In this document: one piece after another, positions 34,656 through 57,939 of the stretch | Layout: each line of letters starts with the position of its first letter | How positions within the stretch are numbered: position 1 is the first letter of the stretch | Origin: Mytilus trossulus | Lineage: Eukaryota | Length of the DNA: 64,000 bases | Direction of reading: 5' to 3' | Assembly: GCF_036588685.1 (NCBI RefSeq) | Contig: NC_086384.1 | Coordinates: 37,572,001 to 37,636,000, forward strand | The notes under the pieces: generated by a model | What the model saw: only the letters and a program-made list of their open reading frames with translations | Database searches by the model: none | Told to the model about the DNA's origin: nothing | Program-made: the position numbers and the translations under genes

Positions 34656-34915
34656 TCAGAAAGAAGTAATTATAACTTCTTTTTCTTCTACAGAGTCAAT
34701 TTCATCTTTCGTGTCTACAGAGTCAATTTCATTTTTCGTGTCATCAAGTGTTTTATTATCTTCCTTCATAGCTGTTTCTTTCATATCTTTTGGAATCGTC
34801 CTTTTACCAAGAGACCTTTCCCTAATTGAAAGCCACCACTGCATGGCCTGGTTTTTTAAGCTTGTTTTGAAGACATATGTCCGAGAATTGGTGCACAAGA
34901 TAAGAGCTGTCTGAT
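34656..34915 (-). CDS. PKS terminal exon: PH strands 6-7 and helix (DQTALILCTNSRTYVFKTSLKNQAMQWWLSIRE), acidic repeat tail, -IITSF*
   Basis: tcatctttcAG acceptor, phase 1; PH-type strand-helix with conserved Trp; candidate AATAAA on the minus strand at 34391-34386. Confidence 0.82.
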
Positions 34916-37900
34916 CTGAAAGATGAAACACAAGACGTTAATTACTAGTATACTTTATATTTCATAAATTTAAGATAAGGAATATCTTACATGTCTAGGA
35001 ATATGATTGGTTAAAAGCGACTGCGTGGGGACCGTGTATATTCCAAATTAGGTAAGTAGGCGGGGCATATTTCAATACATGAGTAGTTCTGGTGTTACGT
35101 CCCTTTATAAACACAACCCATTGCTGATGAAAATTTTCAAGGTTTCAACAAACGATGGAATTGATGATGAACGTTTGAAATATATTCATAAAACACATTT
35201 AAAGATAACAAGTTGTTATTGTTGGCATTTTTTTTGTATATACCAATGGAAGAAGGTTCTTTATACTAACTGCAATGAATACTTGATAATTTACGTAGGT
35301 GACCAGTGTAAATACCACATGTTAAGATAGTCCGTAAGAAACATATTACGACACTATGTTTCAAAAAGATTTGCTTAATACATGTGTCTAGACGTACATA
35401 CATATTGCAAAAAATGATTCGATTGTAACTAACTTCTTGAAAAAAGTAAAATAACAAAAATGTTGAACTCCAAGCACAATTACAAAAACGGAAAGTCCCT
35501 AATCAAATGGCCAAATCAAAAGCTCAAACTCACCAAACGAATGGCAAACAACTGCCATATTTCTGACTTGGAACTAGCATTTTCTTATGGAATTAAATCT
35601 AGCGAAACCTCTCACTTTTATGACAGTCGCAGTTAGTGTTGATGTATTTATTTTCGTGGATATCGATTTTTGAAAAGCATAACTTGTACTTGCTCGGATA
35701 AAATCTTGTGTTTTTTCCATCCTAAGTTTAAAAACATACCAATAATCAATTTGTATTACTTTGAAATTGATTGAGATTCGTTATTCACCTATACACACGT
35801 TATCCACGCTAATTGGTATTCAACGAATAAAATTGAATCCTTACTTAGTCAAATAATTATTCGCAATCAATTAATACAGCAAATAATATAAATCTCCTTT
35901 CTTAGAAATGCGGAAATTTTTATGATAAATATTCCAACGTTATTGTTTCTATAAAAAAATATTACAACTGTTTGTGTATTACATGTCGCTGTTTTCTGAT
36001 TGTACGGTATGGGTATTTCTACTCTACTGGTCTTGCTCAATGTTGAATGCCATATATTGAATGCTAACATTCACGTTTTATTTGGTCCTTGTCTTACAAG
36101 CAATGATTACATATTATTTTAACATGGGCTTACCATTCATATCGACCATTCTTATATCTGTGATATCGGTGTATGCAATTCTCCTGTCCATCTTGTGGGG
36201 TTTTGTTCCCCATTTTATGAATTTTTCATCCTCTGATCCAAGGAAGAGGTATACTTCATGGTCCCAACCTTTCTTTGTCTGTTTCATGAAAACATCTGCA
36301 AAAAAATAATTGTACTTTTAAGATAATGTTGTTTATATTCCCAGTTGAAAGGTGTTAGCAAAACTGCTCGGTTGCAATAAATTATACTTTGGAGAAATTT
36401 TGTGAATTGCAGCTGTGTCTTACTGTTCTTTAGTGCTGTTGATTTATTGTGATTTTCTAAATGTATGTATTCTGCGGATTAAGATTTATGTGTTTATATG
36501 CAATGTATGTAAATGAATGTGTATGTGGGTGATCCAATTAAGAATCCCTTCACTTCAAGAAATTAAAGGATAGAAATTATATTTAGTAAATTATATTGAA
36601 TAAGAATTGATATATATGACGATAAGCTGTCGACATATTGCACTAAACTTACAATATCAATTGCAGTATAAATACAAACTAAATCAGTACTCACTTGAAA
36701 TATTTTTTTCTGAAGTTGATATTCCAGTTTTACAACTTGCTACGTTATATGACGTCATTTCCTCTAGTGTAATACCCGGATTTGCTACGAATCTCTCTAT
36801 CATCATTAGCATAAAGTTGAGAAGATTATGAGCTCTATCCTGGTCAATTATAAGTGTACTACATCCCAGTTCAAGTTCGAGTTTCTTCGTAGTTTCATCA
36901 TTCCACACATAAAAGATGGTTTCGTTGTAATAATTTCCTACCTGAAGTTTCTTAATTTTAATTGGTGTACGTTTTCCATGGTCAATAGCTAGGGATGATA
37001 TTTTTGTAGTTTCCTCCATTACAATTTGGTGCCGGAAAATCTCATTGACAGGGTGGCCCTTTACGTCCTGTATGATGTCAATAAAAGGCATATATCCGTG
37101 ATCTAATGCCTTCATGATCTTTATCTTATTTCGTTGAATAATTTCAGCAACTTGTATTGAACTGTCTTCGAATTCTTGATATAGCGGTATACGATTTGTA
37201 AAACGGTTTGCCTCTCTCTTCAACTCAGGGAAAAACATTCGGCAGTCAAGGGTTGTCATTATAGCAATTGTTGGTTGGCGTAGTTCAACGTGTAGTAGAA
37301 TTTCAAACATGGTAGCAAAAAGGTGAAACAGGGTACATTTGTTACCTTCAAGCAGAGGTCGTATCCCTGTAGCTACCTTTTCGGGTACTCTTACTCGAGT
37401 AAACTCAAAGAAGTTTGGATCTGTTGTTAAATCTCCCGTCAAAGACAATGACATTGGTTGGAGATTCTCTGGAATTACAGTTTGCCAGAAGGTTCTAAGC
37501 TCGACATCATCGTCGATCAACCGTCTTTCAATATGCAGTGCTATATCTACTGGATCTGTAGGGTCTTCATTAGGGGCGTCTGGTCGAAGGTCATTCATCA
37601 TCATCGAGATGGAATGCAAATCTAGTGCTAAATGGTTGAATAAAAATCGCATGATCGCTTGGCGACCTTTTTTGGCGTAGAAAACCCTCATTGGTAGGTC
37701 TGTTGCTGGATCAAACAGATAGTCATCTACGTTTGGAGGATGTCTAGTTTTGTGAAGTAGAAGAGATTTCTCAACAATGCGGAAGTCTATTTCAATCTCT
37801 TCCGGTTCCAGAATAACTCGTTTGACACCATATCTTATGTCGTCATGACCCGGTATAAAGAGTGTCCGCAGAGCAGGATACTTTTGATGAATTTTTACTA

Positions 37901-40900
37901 TCAACGGTTTCCAATATTCTGGCATAGCTATGACACTATCAACAGTTATATCCCCAAACATGTACAAAGATGGGTCATATTTATTCCTCATATGACCATT
38001 GTATGCTCTCTTTTCGTAAGGTGTCATAGAATTTGCGACATTAGTTTCAATTTCCTTTATTTTTATTTCCTCTTCGGCATTACCATTTTCAAGTTTGTCG
38101 TTTATTGCTTCTGCTAGTGCCATCATTGTTGTTCCGTCTGTCAGCAGCATAACTAATGAAACTTTGACATGCATAACCTTCAGGACTGTTTGTGCAAACG
38201 TCATAGCAAGCATAGAATCAACACCCAAAGCTGATATTAGCGTGTCTTCATTGAGCAATGAATGTTCTACTCCAAAAACATCGCTCGCCAGAATAAACAA
38301 TGCTTTCATAATGGCTTCCATTCTCTCTGCTCTTGGTATAGACATTATTTCATTTAGGTCAAAGTTCAATGATGCTGAATTCATCTTAGATCTTCTTTGT
38401 TCTAATATTTTGTCGACAAAACCTCTAAATCTGTACTGTACAAGGGACATGTCCTCAGAAATAAGTCCTGATGCTATTACATCCCAATCAAAAACGCCAT
38501 ACGTTACTTGTGGGCATGTGTTCTTCAAGACTTCTATTAAACTTTTCCTAATGGTTGGTATACTTAATGAAAGTAGTCCTCTTTTCTCTAAAATCTGTTC
38601 AAGACTGTCATCATTAATGGCCATGCCTACTTTGAGAGGACCCCAATTTATACTTTGACCACATAAACCAAGATGTCGACGATAGTGAGCCAATGAGTCA
38701 AGGAAAGCATTTGCAGCTCCGTAATTTGTTTGACCAGCATTACCAAAGACAGACGTCATGGAGGAATGAATGACAAAATAATCTAGAGACAGTTTTTCAG
38801 ATACAATATGTAAGTTCCATGTCCCTAGAACTTTTGGCATCAGAACTTTCTGTAGTTTTTCTCTTGTCATGGATATAAATAGAGCATCATCAAGAACACC
38901 AGCTCCCTGGAAAATGCCTTTTATTGGATATGGAGCTTCTGATATTATTCGATCAAATGACTCTTGGAGAGACTCTATACTAGTTATGTCTGTCTGCATA
39001 GTTGTAATAAAGCATTCATAACGGTCTGACATTTCCTTGATTTTAGTTTGTTTTTCATTTGAAGGTTCCCTCCTTGATAAACTGACGATGAATCCTGCTC
39101 CTCTTTCTGCTAACATATTTGTAATTTCCCAACCAAGACCCGTCATCCCACCAATAATGACGTATACAGCTGTTTTCCTGAAAATGAGATTATCTGGAAT
39201 TCTAATATCGCACATCTGTGCATCGCTCGATCCAGTGACGTCTACAACATCACTTGGAAATGGTAGTAAAGTTGTGTCAGAAGGTTCAAGTCTTATTTGA
39301 TCTTTGGACAAAAGCTTATGTTTCTGCTTTTTCAGCCAATTGATAACTGTTGGGACAATCTGTGGGAGTTTGGTTTTTGACAAAACCTCATCAACATCAA
39401 CAGTGACGAATTGGATATGAGATGAACGGGCGGCCACATAACGCTCAATTTGTAGAGGAAGGAACTGTCGTAGGGATGCTATCATTGTCACGTGTTTAGC
39501 TGCTTCTAAAAATCCATGTATCGTCTGAAGATCTATTTTCATCAATGGGATAACTATTGGTGAAATTTGGTCAGGTGACATGATTTCCTCCAATTTGAAC
39601 ACCATAGCTGGTCCTGATTTTCTAGACGCTATTAGATTTTTTAAGATAATTGCAGACATTTCATTTTCATTGTCAGTAAGAATAAGGTAGTTTTTCTTTG
39701 ATGGTAACTTGCTTACTAATTCCCATAAAAGAGAGGTAGTGCAAAGCATGCCGGGAACATATGGTTGTAAATCTGTCAGACATACCATGCATGATTTAGG
39801 AATGTTTACAACAGACTGAATTTTAAGTGGATAACACGCTACAAATTCTTTCATCGATTTATCTTTCTTGTCTTTTTTATCTATTCTTTTGCCAACAACT
39901 TCAAATGTAAGGACTCCGTAACCATCTTTATGATCTTGCGGCCAGATAGTCACTGCTTCCACTGCATTCTCAAAAGTCAATGGGTATAACGAATTGGTGT
40001 GCAGGCATGCTTTCGATACCTGAAGTAACACTGATTGATCAAACATATCTCCATCCATCTCCTGTAGGGAATAGAAGGTATCATGCAAAACATCTGGAAG
40101 GTTGCTCCTGTACTCTGCTACACAATACTTGTCAATTGACTTGACTTTTGGAGTTTTTATTCTTTCAGAATCTGGTTGCGTTACAAACTCGTTTTCATAT
40201 ATTTTCTTCTTTCTGATGGCAATTTCTGGTATTTCTAGTCTTTTATTGTTTCCTTTGAGAACAGTAAGCAACTGTTTCATGCATTCCTTAAAACTTGGAT
40301 CGATATCTACGAGATACAACTTGAAACTTTGTTCCCTTAGAACTGACCGAACCAATCCCCATAGCTCTGATCCGACAAGGTTAAACTGGCCTGATACGTC
40401 GGGTGATTGAGTACTTTGAGTCAGAATGTAGATTGGAATCGAATCCTGTCTATCTGCCATGAACTTTAAAATGGTCAGTAATAGATCACAGTTGTTGACC
40501 AAATCATCTAGTAAAACGGTACCATCCTTCGTATATTCTTCTTTCATTCTTCCATTTGCAAAAATAATACATGTTTCTTTGTCGTCTTTCACTGATTCAG
40601 CTTCACTGGGTTTGAAATGTTCTTCCAATATGTCTTCGATGATATTGGTTGAATTATTGGCAATGTAATAGCTAATTTCAAGATCACCATAAACATGATC
40701 CTTAAAAATCTGCTTTGTCTTTTCATCCCGGGAAATGAAAATAAACCTTCTGTTTTTTGGTGGATTTGATATCTCGTCCTTTTTAACATCTTTTTCTTCA
40801 TCGTCGCTTGAGCTAAATTCTTTGTCCGTGTCTTTCTTTTCATTGCTTGATAAACTGGAGCCTCCATCTTTATCTTTGTCTTTTTTCTCGCTTGAATAAC

Positions 40901-43900
40901 CTGAACTGTTTGAGTGTTTGTCATAGTCATCCTTGAGGAGTTCCAAATCTGCTTTACAAGTAAAAGAGCTCTTATCTGATTCTTCATCATCTTGTGTATC
41001 TTTGTCATGTAATTGTGGGAGGCCTACAGATGTTTTCTTGATGTCTTCTTGCAAGTCAACTTCTGTCCAAACTATTTTGTGTGCAATTTGACCGTTGTGT
41101 CTCTCTGATTTTTCAATTGCTCTAATCGTAAAGTCCTTGACCTCAGCCACTACTATACCATCAGGTTGAAGTAAAAGTAGGTTATACAAAATTTCATCCT
41201 TAGAAAATGATGTAAGATTCATGTATGCTAACATATTTTTTTCTGGGGATCGTCTCAAAATAAGTTTCTTAAATCCTGCAGGAAGTAGTTGTCCAGAAGG
41301 TCGTTCCTCCATCAATTCAAAAATGATTCCAGGTGTTTGTAAAAGGCCATCGAGGATTGCTGGGTGAATGTTTGTTGTATTCAAATCTTTGATCAGCAAG
41401 TCTGACAAGGTCACATTAACAAGGCATTCAGTTCTATTTTTATATCCATCACCAAGTATCTGTAGGTCATCACCGTATGAAAAGCCAAGTGTTTTCAATG
41501 TTTCATATGTCTGGTCTTTTGGATGAAATATTTTACATCTTTCTTTTATCTTCTGAATATCAACAAAATTTACCTTTACATCTTCCTTGATAATTCTTGA
41601 TGTTCCCTTTGCTATGATGTCATTTCCTGTTTGTATCGTAAAGGTCATGCTCTCCAATGGCTCTAACGACTTTAGCATTACAAAGGCTTCACAAGGGCTG
41701 CCTGGTGATAAACGGAGAGGTCTTTGAAAATCAACTCCTATTTCGAGATTAAAAGGTGATTGTTGTAGCAGACTTTTACTAGCTTCTATTGCCACTTCAG
41801 CATACAAAGCTCCGGGAACTAAAATATTTCCTGCTACGTTGTGCTCATAAACATAAGGAGTAGAGGTGGTACTGATGTCTATTTTGAAAGGTGTATTATC
41901 GTCGGACTGTCGTTTTACGAATGGATGAGCTGATGCCAATTTTCCTCGACCTTGTTTTCTAAGTTTTGTGCTGTCGGCTTCAAATAACGATTTCATTCTG
42001 TTCGGTATGTACTTTGGTATATCAGATATTACAGCAGTGTACGGATTAATTCGTTCCATTTCAGGATTAACACCATTTTTGTAGAATTCTCCAAGTGAAT
42101 CCATTATGCAGGATGATTCTGAATTCACGTTCATAGAGGGCAAGCTTATTGCCTTTCCTTCTGCGAAACTATCACTCAAATGTGTTCTTAGAACAGGCTT
42201 TGGGCCAATTTCGACAAATATATTTATAGTATTAAGTAAGCCAGCATTTCGGACCGCTTTTTGAAACATAACAGGTTTCCTGACATTTTCCCTCCAATAA
42301 GAAGCCGTAACAAATTGTTCATCAGTGGCTACTTCACCAGTCACAGTCGAAAATAATTTCGTTGTAGGTGTTGTACCAGTTAACCCGTTGAGGGCATTTT
42401 CTAGATCAATGCTTGACTTTTCCGTATGATGACTGTGATAGGCACATTTAACATGAAGTGGTCGTAAGAAAATGGGCTCGTCTTCTTCTTCACTTTTCTT
42501 TTTCAGCTTTTGCATTACTTCATTGACGATATCAGTATCACCGGATACGGTTGAAGATTTAGAACTATTGTACACGGCAATGTTTATTTTTCCATCATAC
42601 TCCTGACATAACTCGTCTACCATCTCTGTGTTGCTACTGCCAACCACAAACATGGACCCTCCTGTTGCCTTTGATAAGATTGACGATCTATGATATATGA
42701 CCTTGACAGCATCTTCAAGAGATAGACAACCTGCAGCATATGCAGCGGCCACTTCTCCGACGGACTGCCCCAATACAACTTTCGGTACTATACCATAATA
42801 CTTCCAGAGCTCTGTCAATCCAATTTGACAAGTAAAAATAGCCAGATGACCAACCAATGGTTCACTCAAGTCTGCTGCATCTTTCAATTTCTCATAAATG
42901 GACCATTTAGTATAAGGCTTCAATAGTTCGTCCACTTTTCTTACAGTTTCACTAAACACTGCTTCACTTTGCAAAAGTTCTTGACACATTCCAGTCCAGG
43001 TTGTTCCAACACCACAAAACACAAACACAACATTTGGCGGGTTCAAACCAGCTGGTCGAACACTTTCTATCGTTTTCAATTGTCCTTCTGCTTTTTGGCG
43101 GAGATCTTCCTTTGATTCACACACGAACGCAAGTCTGTACTTGAAGTGTTCTCGTCTGCAGGAACTTGTGTATGCAATACTCTTTAGGCTGTCTACGCAT
43201 GTGTCTTTCAGACAATTTATGAAATGTTGAAGACTATTTGTCAGGCCACCATTGTCCAGAGCTGACAGAAAGACAATGTATTTATCTTTGGTATCATCAT
43301 CGGTTTCTTGTACATCTTCTAATGGAAACTGTTTTATAATTGCGTGACTATTTGTACCTCCAAATCCAAAAGAGTTTACACAACTCATTCTTGTTCCGTC
43401 GTTTAACGTCGGCCAATCTTCAACAGCTATTGACACCGCCATGTTGTATTTTGGGAAATCAATCTTTGGGTTTGGTCGCTCAAAATGAAGAGATTTAACA
43501 GTTTTGCCATGCTTCATCATAAGAAGAACCTTAACGATTCCAGCAACCCCTGCTGCTGATTCCAAGTGACCAATGTTTGTTTTTACTGATCCTATTCTTA
43601 GTGCCTCTTTTCCTTCTTCTCTGTATTTAGAGAAAAATTCACCCAAACTGTTAGCCTCAATAGGATCTCCAACAGGTGTACCAGTTCCTACCAAAATAAA
43701 TATATCATCAGAAACATCCAAAAGGGACTTAGAATTCTCCAAAATACACCCTCTTTTTTAATCAAGCCCTTAGTGCAATATGTACATTCCTTTACACGGT
43801 AGTTGATGAAATGGTCAAATTATTTCAATAAATATATTCCAATACAAAAGTAACTGCGTAAATAATTTCATCGTACTGTTAGTCCGTTCCCTCGAAAATT

Positions 43901-46900
43901 TATATTTGATGAAAAGGAGACAGAAAGAAAAGAGAGGCGAACGATTCCAGAGGGTCATTTAAACTCATAGATTGAAAATAAACTGACAATGCCATGGACA
44001 AAAAAAAAACAAACAGATGAACACTGGTACACAAAACACAACAAAGGACACAAAAGATTGAGCAAGCATTCATTTGTTCAAATGAAAAAGAAATATAACT
44101 ACAATCAAATACTTGAATTAAACCTACTTCAGTAAGTATTCACAGGAATAACAAAGATAAAATACAAATTTCATCTTTACAAAAACAAAATAAAACTTGA
44201 GGGGGTTACACTACATATTCAGAACATAAGTAATTAATTAAGTACACCAATTAATGTATAGTTACCGTGAGCTTCTATATACTGCACCAAGTCTGGGCTG
44301 ACATTGTTCTTTTCGTAAACTTCTTGTAGCAGTTCTGTCTGCATCTGTATAGATGGCGCTGTAATTGGGGTCATTGTTCTACCATCTTGGTTACAACCTG
44401 TCGCTATGGTAGCCCATATTTTGTTACCATCAGCTCTTGCCTATAATAAAATATACATAATGTCACTAAAATTTAACATTGATACTAATCTGGTATTCAG
44501 AATGGATATGTACAGATTAAAACGAGACAAGGGGCTATATACTGTGTCAATATCTTAACGTTCCGAGTCTATGTACAAAGTTGTTAGCTGAAAACAAGTA
44601 GTACTTTAGAAAATTTGCCTTCAAATGATTCAAAGTACATGTATGATAAAGATGGTCTCCTTGTGACTTTTGGATGTAGAACAGCAAATAGCGGTATCCG
44701 CTGTCTATTTTGCTTTTTTGTTTACCGTGCATGTATAGATTCTGTGCCATTCCTGGAAAGCAAATCGATGAATTTATATCACGATAAAATCAAAACCATT
44801 CCTCGAAAATTCAACTTGAGGCAGGTACTGTATCATTTACTAAGTTATAAGTTATATTATCTATCCCTCTTGGTCCTTGAAACCTGCTGTAGAATACTTC
44901 TTAAAAAATCGACACCTATCTTAAATCAATATTGAATATATACTTACATCCTTGAGTGTTTTAAGAACAATGACGCCACCTCCTTCGCCTCTAATATATC
45001 CATCTGCTGTATCAGAAAAGGCTTGACACTGTCCTATGGGCGATACCATTCTTGCTTTTGACAGTGGAATAAGGATATCTGGATACAGAATACTATTGAC
45101 TCCCCCGCAGATTGCCATAGTACAATCACCTAACGAAAATATTTTCAAAATGATATTGTGGTTCAGAAACTGGATCGATATTCGGTGTTACAAAAAGAAA
45201 GTAAAATCTCAAAAATTCTTTAAAATAACTCCGTGGAAAATTACATCAAATTACAAAATCAAAACAATAAACACAACAAACGAATACACAACAACTGTCA
45301 TATTCCTGACTTGGTACAGGCATTACCAAAATGACGTCAACAGTTGTTGCCTTTTAACTTATTATCAATGCGCATCTCTTAACTTTGTTTTTTCTTTTTG
45401 GTTTGATTCATCAATGTGAAAGATTTTGAAAATTTGTCTCGACATTTACCATTCTCAAATATATAAAGACATATATGGTAACTCAACGGGACCTATACTT
45501 GATTTTCACTGCTGTTGTTCTCTGTTAGATAGTTATTATATCACTGGTATTTAAACCACATCTCCATACATAGACTTACCGCTTTTCAGAGCTTGTGATG
45601 CTAAGTGTATAGCAACCAGAGATGAACTACATGCGGTATCTATAGACATGGATGGACCAAGGAGGTTATAGACGTATGATATACGAGCAGCTATAATACT
45701 TGGAGCAGTCCCTGTCAGTGTGTAGTTACTAGCAACTGCTGGGTCTTCGGTAGCAGAACTTTTATAATCGTCATTCATTACTCCTGCAATTAACAATTGA
45801 TAATTTAAAGTAGTGTATATAACTGATCTTGTTATAACAAACTTTTAACAACACAAAATGTGTCCCCATGCCATCTGTAAAATAGAGAATAGATACGGGA
45901 AAAGTGTCAAAGAGAAATTAACCTGACTAAGGAGCACCAATACAGCGAACTGTCTTATTAACAGTTATTTATATTAGTTTAGACTGGTTCTTAATATGAC
46001 AAAGTGCATGGGCCACTGCTGAAGCAAAACACAATGATGAGTTGAAAGTAATATTCGAACGTTTTTACCAATATCTAAAATAAAAATATACCTAGTTGTA
46101 TCACTGTTTAGCTTAACAAAAGATTAAATGCAATTTAATGTAAATTTGAAAGCAAAAAGATTACATAAATTTGCGCTTTCTGCTAGCTCTTAATTGTTAA
46201 AAAATATATGTACCTTTAAAGGAAAACAACTCCTTCAAATGGATATTACATTACAGGATCGATTATGGACGCGGCAATTGACGGATTATCAAAAGTAACG
46301 TTGTATTGCACATAAGCTAAACATACATTGAAGGCCGTACGGTGACCTATAGTTGTTAATGATGTTTGTGTCATTTTGGTCTTTTGTGGATAGTTGTCTC
46401 ATTGGAAACCATACCACATCTTCTTTTTGTATATTGAGTTAGAGAGCAACCAATTAACTTCAAGGGGTTTTGTTTTTAAGTCTGAGTCAGAATTTATTTT
46501 TTCGATGCTATCAATCAAATTAATCATGTTTTCTCTACAAATTTTACACTTTAAGATATGAGGAAAATTTGGATTCAGTATAAATTGTTTTGTCATCTGC
46601 TTTTAATGCTCAACATACCAATGTAAACACCAGTCCGTGTTTCTTGAATATCTTTTCTCATTAAACCGCCATCTTCAAGTGCCATGTGAACACACTCTAG
46701 AATGTATCGCTGTTGAGGGTCCATTTTAGCTGCTTCCGGTTCGCTAATTCCGAACATTTTTGGATCAAACTCATCAAAGCTAAAAAAAAACAACCATATT
46801 TGTATTCTGTGAAACCGCTATCAATGAATTAATTGGTTTTTAATCACATATGTTTCTAACACGCGAATTTCTCCTTAATATTGGTGGCTAAAAATCGCTA

Positions 46901-49497
46901 TTAATGGTTAACTACTCAAATAACTAGGCTGAACCCGCAGTAAAGTAATAATTTTTTATGGTTTTAACTTTTTCATTTTAATGCTGCAATATCATTGCTT
47001 GTTGTTGTTAATTTAAGTCACAACTTTTTCTAGACAATTCCTCGATAAGGGTTTATTCTGTGCATTACACCCAGTCTGAAAAATCATCATACACCCTTAT
47101 AATAACAAATCCACACTACTTGTAAATAATTTTATACATACAACTGTTCAACGATATTGAGTATTCAAGACCCATAAAAAGTTAAAACAAAACAACTCAT
47201 GTATATGCAAAACCCTCTAAAATTTGCAGACTATGCAGGCACTATGTAATACCTTGAATTTAATCATCAATTATACTTGATTAAATTTTACGTTTTTCTT
47301 TGAAAAATCAAATAAATCCTTAAAAAAATCAGCACTGCTATTTAGAGTTTTCTGAAAATTTCTATTGAATCGTAACAATGTCTATCGGCATCTCAAGAAA
47401 ACAAAATTGAGAATGGAAATAGGGAATTGTCATAAAGACAACAACCCGACCAAAGAGCAGAAACCCAACAATGGGTCTTCATGATAGCGAGAAATTCCCG
47501 CACCCAGAGTTGTGCTTTAGATGGCCCCTAAATAAAAAAAATTACTAGTTCAGTGATAATGTAAGTATGATAATATACATACTTTGATAAAAATCCACCT
47601 CTGCGGACATATGTTTTACCAGGTTCGTCGTAATCTGCAGAATAGTATTCTTCAACATTCCATCTTTCTGGCGGGATTTCTACCACATGGTTCTCTCCAT
47701 TCACCAGAACCCGCCAAAAATCATCAACAGTTTCCGCGCCAGGAAATTTTCCACCCACACCGACTATAGCAATGGCGTTATCTAGATCTAAACCGGATCT
47801 AGAGAAAAAAATATGTTCAAATGTAAATACAAAAATAAAGAACATAAAAACTTTAATTTTGACCGAAAAAATGAGATGCAATTGTCCTGGAAATACAATT
47901 ATCTATTCCAGAATACATTTAATTTTATGTTTTCCAAAATTTAAGCCTCATTTTCATAGGTATGCTGCTCCTTGCAAGGCAATATATTTCCTGCACGCTT
48001 TGCACCATAATATTAATAAATGATATCAATATATATTGATGTAACTTACTCTTTATCTGGTTCAATATTTATCCTTCTTGACTTAAATTGAGGTAACTGG
48101 TCCATAGGATTTACGTCTTTTCCTTGCGGTCCCATTTCATCAACCTTATCACCCATCCACTCTCGGGCTTCCTCCATTAATGCTTTACTATCCTCATCGT
48201 CCATGAATCCCCCCTGTTAATAAAAGAAAATCAAAATATCTAAGTATTGGTTGTTTGCTTTGTGCATTTTAACTTTCTTTGATATATAGTAACAAATCTA
48301 GAAGTCTTAGGTCTAAAATTAAGAATAATCATATTCTGTAAGCTACCGAACATTTTGATTTAAAATCCTTCTTATTTCTACAACATTTCTGAATATTTAC
48401 ATTCATATCTGCCAAAAACGTATAGACAAAAGTTAGTTTCAAAACACAGAATTAGTTTTTTCCCATGAATATGAAGTATATACTATACATTTTCTTTTGG
48501 AAAATAAAAAAAATCCCAAACATTTCGATAGTTCAGTAGCAAATAAATATAACTGCATGCACCGAGATGTTCTTTCTTAAATTAAATATTAAATCAGCGA
48601 ATGTGTCCGATTGAAGGACATCTTTAAGAGTTTATTTAAAATGTGTTTGTGCATCTTTACTGCAATAAATATATTAACACGTGTAAAGAAAAAGGAAACG
48701 AGTTTGTATGAATATCTTTTCAAACAAATAATTATCTATAGACGTTAGAAGTATGCTTTTGGTTATTTAGACTTTCAGTCAATGAGATATGGAATATATA
48801 TAATATATATATACTCATTCTTTCTTGTAAAAATAAGATTGTCTAGCCGTACCTTTGAAACTATACAATTTAAGTCTTCTGAAAAGACTACACCGAACAG
48901 CTGTAGACATTTAGACGAAGTTTTATAGAGATATTGGTATTTATTAAAAGTTGAAACGTTTAAACCCGCTGCATTTGTTTGCACCTGATACAAGTCTGGA
49001 ATCTGATGTACAGTACTTGTCGTTTGTTGATGTCATTTATAAATTTTTCTCGTTTCTCGGTTATTTTTATATAGATAAGACCGTTGCCTTCACCGTTTGA
49101 ATGGTTATACACATGTCATTTTTGTTATAACTTGCTGTTCGGTGTAATCCAAAGCTCCGAGTTGGTTACCGTACCTTTAATAGTTATAATACCTATAATA
49201 GTTACTTTTATAAACTGTGACTAGTATTGCGAGTTGTCTCATTGGCACTCATACCACTTCTTCTTATATCTATATATTATCGATTATTGTATTTTTTTAA
49301 ATAACTTGTACATTTATCGAGTTTTTATTGAACAATTGTTGGGTTCTGTCTTATTGGTAATCACCCTTTTTAACCACACGCGGTTTAAGTTTTGTAGTGT
49401 ATTGCAGACAATACTGAAAACATACCATTTGGCTTCCTCCAGGGCCTCCAGGGCCGCCCATCGGGCCTCCCATCTGGCCGTGGCCTCCTTGCATCAT
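34656..49497 (-). CDS. Spliced type I (probably iterative) polyketide synthase, KS-AT-DH-psiKR-ER0-KR-ACP-C-PH, ~2862 aa; join(49497-49426,48213-48050,47798-47583,46779-46619,45783-45580,45129-44948,44440-44266,43687-36695,36295-36134,34915-34656)
   Basis: All 9 introns are GT..AG with matching phases (0,2,2,1,1,0,1,1,1); total 8589 nt is divisible by 3. Motifs: KS DTACSSS/EAHGTGT/NIGHLE; AT GQSVGE/AYHS; DH HNVAGNILVP and HPAILD; KR GGMTGLG/LDD/NYGAAN; ACP GVDS; C-domain NHLALD; PH C-terminal RTYVFKT..MQWW. Confidence 0.9.
36134..36295 (-). CDS. PKS exon 9, N-terminal half of a PH-like domain (VFMKQTKKGWDHEVYLFLGSEDEKFIKWGTKPHKMDRRIAYTDITDIRMVDMN)
   Basis: tttttttgcAG acceptor, AATG|GTAAGC donor, 162 nt, symmetric phase 1-1, stop-free. 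Confidence 0.82.
36695..43687 (-). CDS. PKS exon 8 (6993 nt): KS C-terminus (to ~43330), AT (~43040-42040), DH (~41930-41090), acidic linker, psiKR, degenerate ER (~40100-39250), KR (~39190-38480), ACP (~38340-38090), condensation domain (~38030-36760)
   Basis: 2352-aa ORF in the track. The true exon start is ttttggtAG|GA ACT GGT; a strong donor TCAA|GTGAGT at 36695 lies just before the in-frame TGA. Confidence 0.95.
44266..44440 (-). CDS. PKS exon 7, KS (ARADGNKIWA..NQDGRTMTPITAPS..YIEAHG); absent from the ORF track
   Basis: Hand translation gives NQDG, ITAPS and YIEAH; splicing to exon 8 rebuilds EAHGTGT; tatAG acceptor, CACG|GTAAC donor. Confidence 0.94.
44948..45129 (-). CDS. PKS exon 6, KS (CQAFSDTADGYIRGEGGG)
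   Basis: KS GY.RGEG motif; ttcgttAG acceptor, GAT|GTAAGT donor. Confidence 0.94.
45580..45783 (-). CDS. PKS exon 5, KS catalytic Cys (GPSMSIDTACSSSLVA)
   Basis: DTACSSS motif; ttgcAG acceptor, G|GTAAGT donor. Confidence 0.95.
46619..46779 (-). CDS. PKS exon 4, KS (FDPKMFGISEPEAAKMDPQQR..TGVYIG)
   Basis: KS DPQQR motif; poly-T AG acceptor, G|GTATGT donor. Confidence 0.94.
47583..47798 (-). CDS. PKS exon 3, KS N-terminus (IAIVGVGGKFPGA..FWRVL..IPPERW..GGFL)
   Basis: Canonical KS start motifs; ttttttctctAG acceptor, AA|GTATGT donor. Confidence 0.93.
48050..48213 (-). CDS. PKS coding exon 2 (GGFMDDEDSKALMEEAREWMGDKVDEMGPQGKDVNPMDQLPQFKSRRINIEPDK)
   Basis: Acceptor ttttcttttattaacAG, donor GA|GTAAGT; open frame; phase 2 joins the first KS exon (GA+A=Glu). 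Confidence 0.8.
49426..49497 (-). CDS. PKS coding exon 1 (MMQGGHGQMGGPMGGPGGPGGSQM); the exon including UTR runs 49538-49426
   Basis: Acceptor tattttcAG at 49540-49539, ATG ATG at 49497, donor ATG|GTATGT. GC-rich island in AT-rich DNA; phase 0 matches the next exon. Confidence 0.7.
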
Positions 49498-56745: not shown

Positions 56746-57118
56746 TTTTGTAAATGTTATATATGTTTATTTATTCATGCGTATCAAATATGTAAATACA
56801 TACATCACATCTTCCTATATCTAAATAAATAATTATTAATATTCATAGGTCCACTTATGGCTGACTATTCACATTAAGACATTTATGATAATAAAATTAT
56901 GATAACTTCAAATAATGACTTATTTACTTCATTTATTTAATTATAATGATTTGGCAATTATTAAAATGAGACAACTCTCCATCAGTGACCAAAGGACACA
57001 GAACTGATGCAAAACAGACGGAAAAATTCTTTGTTAACCTGTCTCATCATCGCTCTGTTAATAGGGGAATTAAACTGGACCCCTGCTGTTGTTTCATTCT
57101 TGCATATGTCAAAGTATC

Positions 57119-57817
57119 AATCAGCGGGTGGCCAGTTAATAAGGTTATCCAATCGGCAATCAGCAGTTAATAAAGTTATCCAATCGGCAATCAGCGGGTG
57201 GCCAGTTAATAAGGTTATCCAATCGGCAATCAGCGGGTGGCCAGTTAATAAGGTTATCCAATCGGCAATCAGCGGGTGGCCAGTTAATAAGGTTATCCAA
57301 TCGGCAATCAGCGGGTGGCCAGTTAATAAGGTTATCCAATCGGCAATCAGCGGGTGGCCAGTTAATAAGGTTATCCAATCGGCAATCAGCGGGTGGCCAG
57401 TTAACAAGGTAATCCAATCGGCAATCAGCGGGTGGCCAGTTAATAAGGTAATCCAATCGGCAATCAGCGGGTGGCCAGTTAATAAGGTAATCCAATCGGC
57501 AATCAGCGGGTGGCCAGTTAATAAGGTTATCCAATCGGCAATCAGCGGGTAGCCAGTTAATAAGGTTATCTAATCGGCAATCAGCGGGTAGCCAGTTAAC
57601 AAGGTTATCTAATCGGCAATCAGCGGGTAGCCAGTTAACAAGGTTATCTAATCGGCAATCAGCGGGTAGCCAGTTAATAAGGTTATCTAATCGGCAATCA
57701 GCGGGTGGCCAGTTAATAAGGTTATCTAATCGGCAATCAGCGGGTGGCCAATTAACAAGGTAATCCAATCGGCAATCAGCGGGTGGCCAGTTAACAAGGT
57801 AATCCAATCGGCAATCA
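57119..57817. repeat. 39-bp minisatellite, ~18 copies (AATCGGCAATCAGCGGGTGGCCAGTTAATAAGGTTATCC)
   Basis: Direct reading; one unit lacks GGGTGGCC (~57164); variant SNPs occur in adjacent blocks. Confidence 0.97.
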
Positions 57818-57939
57818 TCGACTGAATCAGGAATTGGCCGAGTTGTGACGACTGTAGGGAAATATTGATATAACTTTAAAAGGCAGAAGTACAACACCCC
57901 GAACTGAACCTTTTGAACAGAATGCCTATTTTGTTTTGG

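Follow-up and report, generated by a model that had tools for sequence, protein, structure and literature searches.

A spliced mussel polyketide synthase in which the condensation domain is followed by a PH-fold domain and a PDZ-type tail

The window considered here is a stretch of 64,000 nucleotides of Mytilus trossulus DNA (positions 37,572,001 to 37,636,000 of contig NC_086384.1, assembly GCF_036588685.1). Its minus strand holds a polyketide synthase (PKS) gene, in which a condensation (C) domain of the kind known from nonribosomal peptide synthetases (NRPSs) stands behind the acyl carrier protein (ACP). This arrangement raises the question of where the enzyme ends and how its acyl chain leaves it. 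The sequence-only reading of the locus took the C domain to be terminal, standing in place of a thioesterase (TE), and expected an N- or O-acyl conjugate rather than a free acid. The C domain is instead joined by splicing to a pleckstrin homology (PH)-fold domain and a PDZ-type tail.

Gene structure and the tail behind the C domain

The locus is a transcribed and spliced mussel PKS gene. It extends over 34656..49497 (minus strand, as are all features of the gene given below) and comprises 10 coding exons for 2862 amino acids, arranged as ketosynthase (KS), acyltransferase (AT), dehydratase (DH), a pseudo methyltransferase/enoyl reductase (MT/ER) region, ketoreductase (KR), ACP, C, PH, and PDZ-type tail. 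The Mytilus gene model P0161, likewise 2862 amino acids long, matches ten window exons letter for letter from 49497 to 34656. All nine of its introns appear as joints in contigs of sequencing runs (9/9), and one contig of 8986 bases covers the exons from the KS through the 3′ end. Within the AT-rich window (GC 0.28-0.39), the gene presents itself as a single long frame at 36684-43757, the apparent stop of which, at 36684, lies in a phase-1 GT-AG intron (36296..36694). Contigs of 4/4 runs, which belong to four studies and whose RNA status is guessed, skip 36296-36694 and 34916-36133, joining 36695 to 36295 and 36134 to 34915. Splicing past the C domain adds ~140 residues, and since the stop is intronic, an annotation made from the open frame alone loses these last 140 residues. 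The claim that the C domain is terminal is excluded by the mapping of P0161 and the splice joints.

Seven introns lie in the KS region, followed by one 7-kb exon and two further introns in the tail. The seven short 5′ exons (44265..49497) encode a Gly/Met-rich N-terminal extension and the N-terminal part of the KS (DTACSS, EAHG). The large exon (36695..43686) contains the C terminus of the KS, AT, DH, the pseudo-MT/ER region, KR, ACP, and C. Exon 9 (36134..36295) encodes the first half of the PH-fold domain; exon 10 (34656..34915) adds its second half, an acidic linker, the C-terminal residues ITSF, and the stop codon. Two small exons at 48050-49497 form an 80-residue extension before the KS, Gly/Met/Pro-rich and then acidic, that is found in four Mytilus models. 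A bacterial or contaminant origin of the gene is ruled out by its nine spliced GT-AG introns and by the Mytilus-named members of the nearest cluster.

The fold of the tail is seen in the model of P0012, an ortholog fragment 97% identical to P0161, with a pLDDT of 86-94 over residues 101-180. In it, seven strands form a sandwich that a C-terminal helix closes off. Its closest structures are the PH domains of DAPP1 (Z 13.4) and ARAP3 (Z 13.3), and PH-superfamily folds fill the list of matches. An Atlas structure search of the tail gives TM scores of 0.75-0.81, with PH clusters in 7/10 rows. Class I PDZ ligands are C-terminal [ST]-x-hydrophobic sequences, and ITSF at the C terminus of the protein fits this motif. 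Such ends occur in 7/13 PH-bearing tails versus 4/188 proteins of the NRPS type. The binomial p is 1e-7 and becomes 2e-5 once two related pairs are merged; the rows are related to each other. The PH fold and the PDZ-type motif are predicted to place the enzyme at a membrane.

Synthase core and condensation domain

Pfam recognizes the KS C terminus, AT, DH, KR, ACP, and Condensation on the long frame. The AT (42132..43028; PF00698, E 1.5e-49) carries GQSVG and CAYHS, and the DH (41103..41912; PF21089 and PF14765) carries HNVAGNILVPG and HPAILD. The KR (38631..39170; PF08659, E 1.1e-55) shows GGMTGLG, GVLDD, and GQTNY, and the ACP (38103..38291; PF00550 above cut-off) GVDSM. Hence, the motifs of KS, AT, DH, KR, and ACP are all intact. 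Between DH and KR, 39171..41102 encodes ~640 amino acids where MT and ER would lie; this region is read as degenerate. It has no Pfam match to an MT or ER at E<=1 and four PDB matches at E<=10, none of them an ER or MT chain, and a regular expression for ER and MT motifs, used without a positive control, hit 0/42 relatives. The architecture is, thus, KS-AT-DH-[no ER or MT detected]-KR-ACP-C-PH. A Ser/Asp/Lys-rich low-complexity insert at 40750-41050, on the 3′ side of the DH, varies between close orthologs.

The C domain (36747..38036) has a complete two-lobed fold. The sequence motifs from which it had been proposed lie in one minus-strand frame: GVDS at 38214-38225, MTPYE at 38013-38027, YPALRTLF at 37857-37880, YLFDPATDLPMR at 37686-37721, NHLALD at 37620-37637, CTLFH at 37323-37337, FTNRIPL at 37182-37202, and MPFIDII at 37071-37091. 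The proposal of an NRPS C-like region behind the ACP motif GVDS is confirmed. Pfam Condensation (PF00668) reaches 42.5 bits (E 4.7e-11), above its cut-off of 30.6. For the final 458 residues of the frame, an AlphaFold2 model made with 62 aligned sequences has a pLDDT of 91.9. Residues 9-440 of this model match NRPS C domains with a Foldseek E of 3e-28, the best structural match being LgrA (VIA Z 37.6, rmsd 2.6, 405 residues aligned). The presence of the two-lobed CAT-like fold of ~450 residues makes the domain a member of the NRPS condensation-domain superfamily. An NCBIfam scan of the C domain gave no matches.

The active-site motif was likewise read in the correct register. In a profile-profile alignment against 58 NRPS C domains, NHLALD falls on HHxxxDG (probability 100%, E 1.7e-59). 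Compared with the canonical motif, NHLALDL keeps the second histidine (His2; H2410, codon 37632-37634) and the aspartate (D2414, codon 37620-37622) and replaces the first histidine (His1) and the glycine. The adenylation (A) domain and peptidyl carrier protein (PCP) that follow canonical PCP-dependent C domains are absent from the full-length 2862-residue model; neither TE, reductase, A, nor PCP was found in it, which agrees with the earlier statement that no A, PCP, or TE lies downstream.

Retention of His2 and Asp with loss of His1 and Gly matches C domains that need no acceptor carrier. VibH, OaaC and the C domains of fatty-acid amides (CFAA), and the fungal terminal C domains (CT) likewise keep His2 and Asp, vary at His1 and Gly, and have no acceptor PCP; however, these are stand-alone bacterial enzymes or NRPS termini, whereas the domain described here is fused into an animal PKS and followed by a PH fold. 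Terminal C domains without acceptor carrier show SHxxxDx in the sections covered (PMC10510592). Fatty-acid-amide C domains are given as (D/H)HxxxDS, with His2 conserved to >99% and Gly mostly replaced, in the sections covered of a second source (PMC13310621). Compared with the CFAA motif (D/H)HxxxD(S/A), His2 and Asp are common to both, but position 1 of the mussel domain is N and position 7 is L. CFAA/OaaC consist of a free-standing C domain with separate A and ACP genes, an arrangement that differs from the one found here.

The favored reading, at a probability of roughly 0.45, is that of a membrane-placed iterative PKS, the C domain of which would pass an acyl chain of the polyene type on to a free amine or alcohol. 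In general PKS logic, KR and DH without an ER give an unsaturated chain. With KR and DH present and an ER undetected, the chain would be a polyene-type or partly dehydrated acyl group; the enzyme probably works iteratively, without enoyl reduction. The ACP would dock at the donor side of the C domain, and His2410 would position a small or lipid acceptor, in the manner of VibH, of fungal CT, and of the fatty-acid-amide C domains from the gut. Transfer onto the amine or alcohol would release the chain, and the PH fold and PDZ-type motif would bring the enzyme to a membrane scaffold. In the absence of a TE, release by the C domain is the simplest reading. The expected conjugate stands as the leading guess, on the grounds of the retained His2 and Asp and of the missing TE and reductase; it is not a deduction.

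Relatives in molluscs and lancelets

A HMMER search of 1.84 billion representatives returned 321 matches at E<=0.001; a word-based homolog search returned only 5 proteins. The 150 best of the 321 matches and three from the word-based search were taken, of which 76 without an adenylation motif were aligned, and motifs were counted over 68 rows, nine motif-less fragments being left out. Twenty relatives were looked up by name and belong to mussel, pearl oyster, scallop, oyster, clam, freshwater mussel, limpet, abalone, chiton, and lancelet. The trees took in no CFAA sequences. Over the 68 rows, Asp is present in 67, His1 in 38, and His2 in 23. The clade that contains the mussel protein keeps His2 in 18/20 rows at a median pairwise identity of 23%. 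Without four near-duplicates the count is 14/16, a level reached by only 23/458 columns (median column 0.31). In the careful tree of 43 rows, the mollusc clade is supported at 100/96 and the core His2 clade at 100/99; a long-branch warning applies to the join of lancelets to the outgroup.

Several observations weigh against the favored reading. His2 is absent from 45/68 rows, and a separate clade of 30 rows has it in none (0/30) while retaining His1 in 27 and also bearing PH tails; hence, the family does not need His2. The wider His2 clade reaches only 91/82 in the careful tree, and several C domains stay active as His2 mutants in the portion of the source covered (PMC10510592). The C domain is not terminal, and full-length relatives without a PH domain exist, namely Haliotis (abalone) P0111, chiton P0044, and the example of Lin et al. 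2024, which reads SCVVFD and lacks a PH tail in the part of the paper covered (PMC10764717). In the tail itself, Pfam PH scores fall below cut-off: among 14 proteins, 18.7-20.9 bits against 27 for PH_21 and at best 19.3 bits against 25.1 for the PH family. PH domains that bind phosphoinositides tightly carry a basic motif, K-Xn-(K/R)-x-R, that spans strands 1-2. This motif is missing in the mussel tail, where strand 2 begins with WDHEV; lancelet and oyster tails are basic at strand 2. The PH domain may bind a protein rather than a phosphoinositide.

That the family divides according to the histidine retained is new here. A C-domain tree, as had been suggested, supports the conjugate reading within the protein's own clade (18/20) and fails to do so in the other (0/30). 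With His2 in 18/20 rows of the subclade and in 23/68 overall, condensation is a plausible means of release for this protein, though not one to be presumed family-wide. Among the named members, clams and freshwater mussels (P0027, P0041, P0081) keep only His1, and mussels, pearl oysters, scallops, and oysters (P0004, P0006, P0009, P0014, P0036) keep only His2. Positions 1-2 of the motif read HR in P0008 and P0111, and some mollusc relatives have HR or HK. Outside the motif, Asp272, Arg343-His344, and Glu380 of the C domain (36920-37250) are kept across both clades. His344 occurs in 64/69 rows and Glu380 in 67/70, and none of these conserved residues is the majority residue in NRPS C domains. 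A second active site of the heterocyclization type at His344 and Glu380 was considered and is not supported: Glu380 aligns ahead of the KFDL motif's Asp rather than with it, and some NRPS C domains also have a His at or beside the position of His344.

With a profile built from 13 tails, the PH tail is detected in members of both clades, as well as in two paralogs of this genome and seven additional lancelet proteins. The C-PH tail is present in scallop, oyster, clam, limpet, and lancelet relatives. Many other matches are frames from genomic contigs that would stop at the same intron and are, thus, uninformative on the PH tail. Of the PKS-C paralogs L002, L003, and L004 (G000:C7), two have NHLSFD and PH exons, and one has RRFYFD without either histidine. 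Within ~3 kb after the fourth paralog, L004, a PH exon was not found, which is not evidence of its absence. A PDB profile search with the family alignment was uninformative because the full-length rows turned the profile into one of KS-AT.

Lancelet members show KS-AT-DH-KR-ACP-TE-C-PH or end in TE-C-A-PH, with the TE placed between ACP and C. The proteins P0064, P0196, and P0201-P0206 contain TE, C, a degenerate A, and PH, and end in DTYL, DTHL, or DTRL. In their A domain the core motif is degenerate, and no PCP stands behind it. In one lancelet paralog the motif is NHISTD, so that His1 was lost separately there while His2 was retained. XP_002610053, listed in Table 2 of Hojo et al. 2015, falls in the cluster of P0064. 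The portion of that table covered gives lancelet PKSs as KS-AT-DH-KR-ACP-TE-C(-AMP) and lists no PH (PMC4604110). These enzymes share with the mussel protein a related C domain, the PH tail, and PDZ-type DTYL/DTHL/DTRL ends; they differ by the retained TE, a mostly HHxxxD motif, and an often degenerate A.

The family is presumably a cut-down PKS-NRPS hybrid, whose ancestor lost a working A domain: lancelets keep TE-C-degenerate A-PH, and molluscs would have lost both TE and A. A more far-reaching proposal is that of an ancient bilaterian, membrane-addressed PKS family that lost its amino acid-activating half and gained the PH domain and PDZ ligand before molluscs and chordates split. The enzyme would dock at an epithelium's secretory face, and its C domain would attach a polyene chain to a membrane lipid or amine. 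This is speculative and unlikely as it stands; if true, the family would supply the so far missing origin of the polyene pigments of mollusc shells or of a lipid that nucleates mineral.

Alternative roles of the C domain and known systems

The alternative that survives best, though somewhat unlikely, is a noncondensing accessory C domain of the LovB or X-domain type. Such a domain would bind the chain or recruit a TE or oxidase and carry the PH fold, release being spontaneous or in trans. The near invariance of Asp (67/68) next to the variable His2 (23/68) matches the LovB-type PKS-C ClaE (HRxxxDG), for which the sections covered describe an essential C domain and Asp, a dispensable position-2 residue, and a coexpressed TE (PMC13492342). 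The partly covered sources also have LovB-type enzymes expressed with a separate TE and ER. The LovB-like PKS-C enzymes share with the mussel protein the C domain after the ACP, a noncanonical motif, and the invariant Asp; they differ in HRxxxDG, where His2 stands here, and in the MT, which is not detected here. In lancelets, an intact-looking TE with GHSMG lies beside the C domain, and vertebrate PKSs including medaka OlPKS function with no C, TE, or PH listed in the part of the source covered (PMC4604110). Both facts favor an accessory role and speak against release by the C domain. However, His2 is among the 23 best-conserved columns of the mussel subclade, and a C domain without His2 (ORF18, HQxxxDM) still forms amides, so that loss of His2 elsewhere is no proof of inactivity.

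Rather less probable is a catalytic C domain that uses water or an internal hydroxyl and replaces the lost TE, giving a free acid or lactone. Molluscs indeed lack the TE found in lancelets, corals, and sea-urchin PKS2, and the terminal C domain of IvoA hydrolyzes its thioester in the part of the report covered (PMC11546977), which also tells against transfer to an amine or alcohol. Yet a TE already supplied hydrolysis in the lancelet architecture that also has a C domain; hence, the C domain was kept there for something else. A split PKS-NRPS, in which the chain is condensed onto an amino acid on a carrier protein from another locus, would fit the descent from C-A hybrids, the other NRPS parts of this genome, including a 5302-residue PKS-NRPS frame on another contig, and a published mussel A-T-R enzyme, but is improbable since no A or carrier was recognized among the open frames of the window plus 10 kb on each side (a scan that would overlook short exons), the lancelet A is already degenerate with no PCP after it, and loss of the motif Gly accompanies carrier-free acceptors in the sections of the source covered (PMC13310621).

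Parts of the earlier headline were already in print (mollusc PKSs with a C domain) or are ordinary (loss of His1 and Gly). New is the spliced PH and PDZ-type tail shared with lancelets. Fungal truncated PKS-NRPSs, reportedly described by Hai and Tang in 2018, are said to make long-chain N-acyl amides (TwmB, wortmanamide). They share a PKS followed by a C domain without A or PCP and served as the model for the earlier mechanism; they differ in that C is last and no PH is present, whereas here PH is spliced after C.

According to the parts covered of Lin et al. 2024 (PMC10764717), mollusc PKSs, sampled from most major mollusc lineages, occur with or without a C domain and belong to the canonical animal PKS clade. 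Their PKS-C enzymes have in common with the mussel gene the order KS-AT-DH-KR-ACP-C, the AT motif GQSVG, a very large exon, and mostly N-terminal introns. The main text contains "pleckstrin" 0 times, does not discuss the C motif, and gives no product; Figure 4 and 7/18 supplementary files lie outside this comparison and may bear on the novelty of the PH tail. Lancelet C domains are noted by Suring et al. 2023, with "pleckstrin" occurring 0 times in the text covered (PMC10531068). No animal PKS with a PH domain was found in the literature searched, which contains few subscription journals; the PH fold may already be flagged in automatic domain databases. Within the same literature, no biochemical study or product of a mollusc PKS with a C domain was found, nor, in the literature searched, a link of a mussel PKS to mantle or shell.

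In the parts of the reports covered, OlPKS shares the KS-AT-DH-KR-ACP core without a listed ER (PMC4604110), budgerigar MuPKS makes polyenes in yeast (PMC7036892), and pks genes are raised in the colored nacre of a freshwater mussel, their membership in this PKS-C family not being shown (PMC12652611). The medaka PKS needed for otolith mineralization likewise has no known product. The PH fold and PDZ-type tail indicate where the enzyme would work, which a reading of motifs alone could not, and the spliced tail defines the construct to express. The clades with and without His2, together with the lancelet TE/dead-A forms, are natural controls for the function of a C domain on an animal PKS.

Further features lie in and around the window. 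A tandem repeat at 57007-57897 has repetitive open frames on both strands. Some 8 kb past the right end of the window, a 503-residue open frame (L018:7819-9327) has no Pfam match at E<=0.001. The 5302-residue PKS-NRPS hybrid is a single frame on a chromosome-size contig (G000:C6:55749670-55765575, L013-L015) with KS, carrier, three C, two A, and a methyltransferase. A stand-alone frame of 482 residues (G000:C1:94747475-94748920, L016:5475-6920) scores above cut-off for Pfam Condensation, carries HHSIVDF, and is a possible free acyltransferase.

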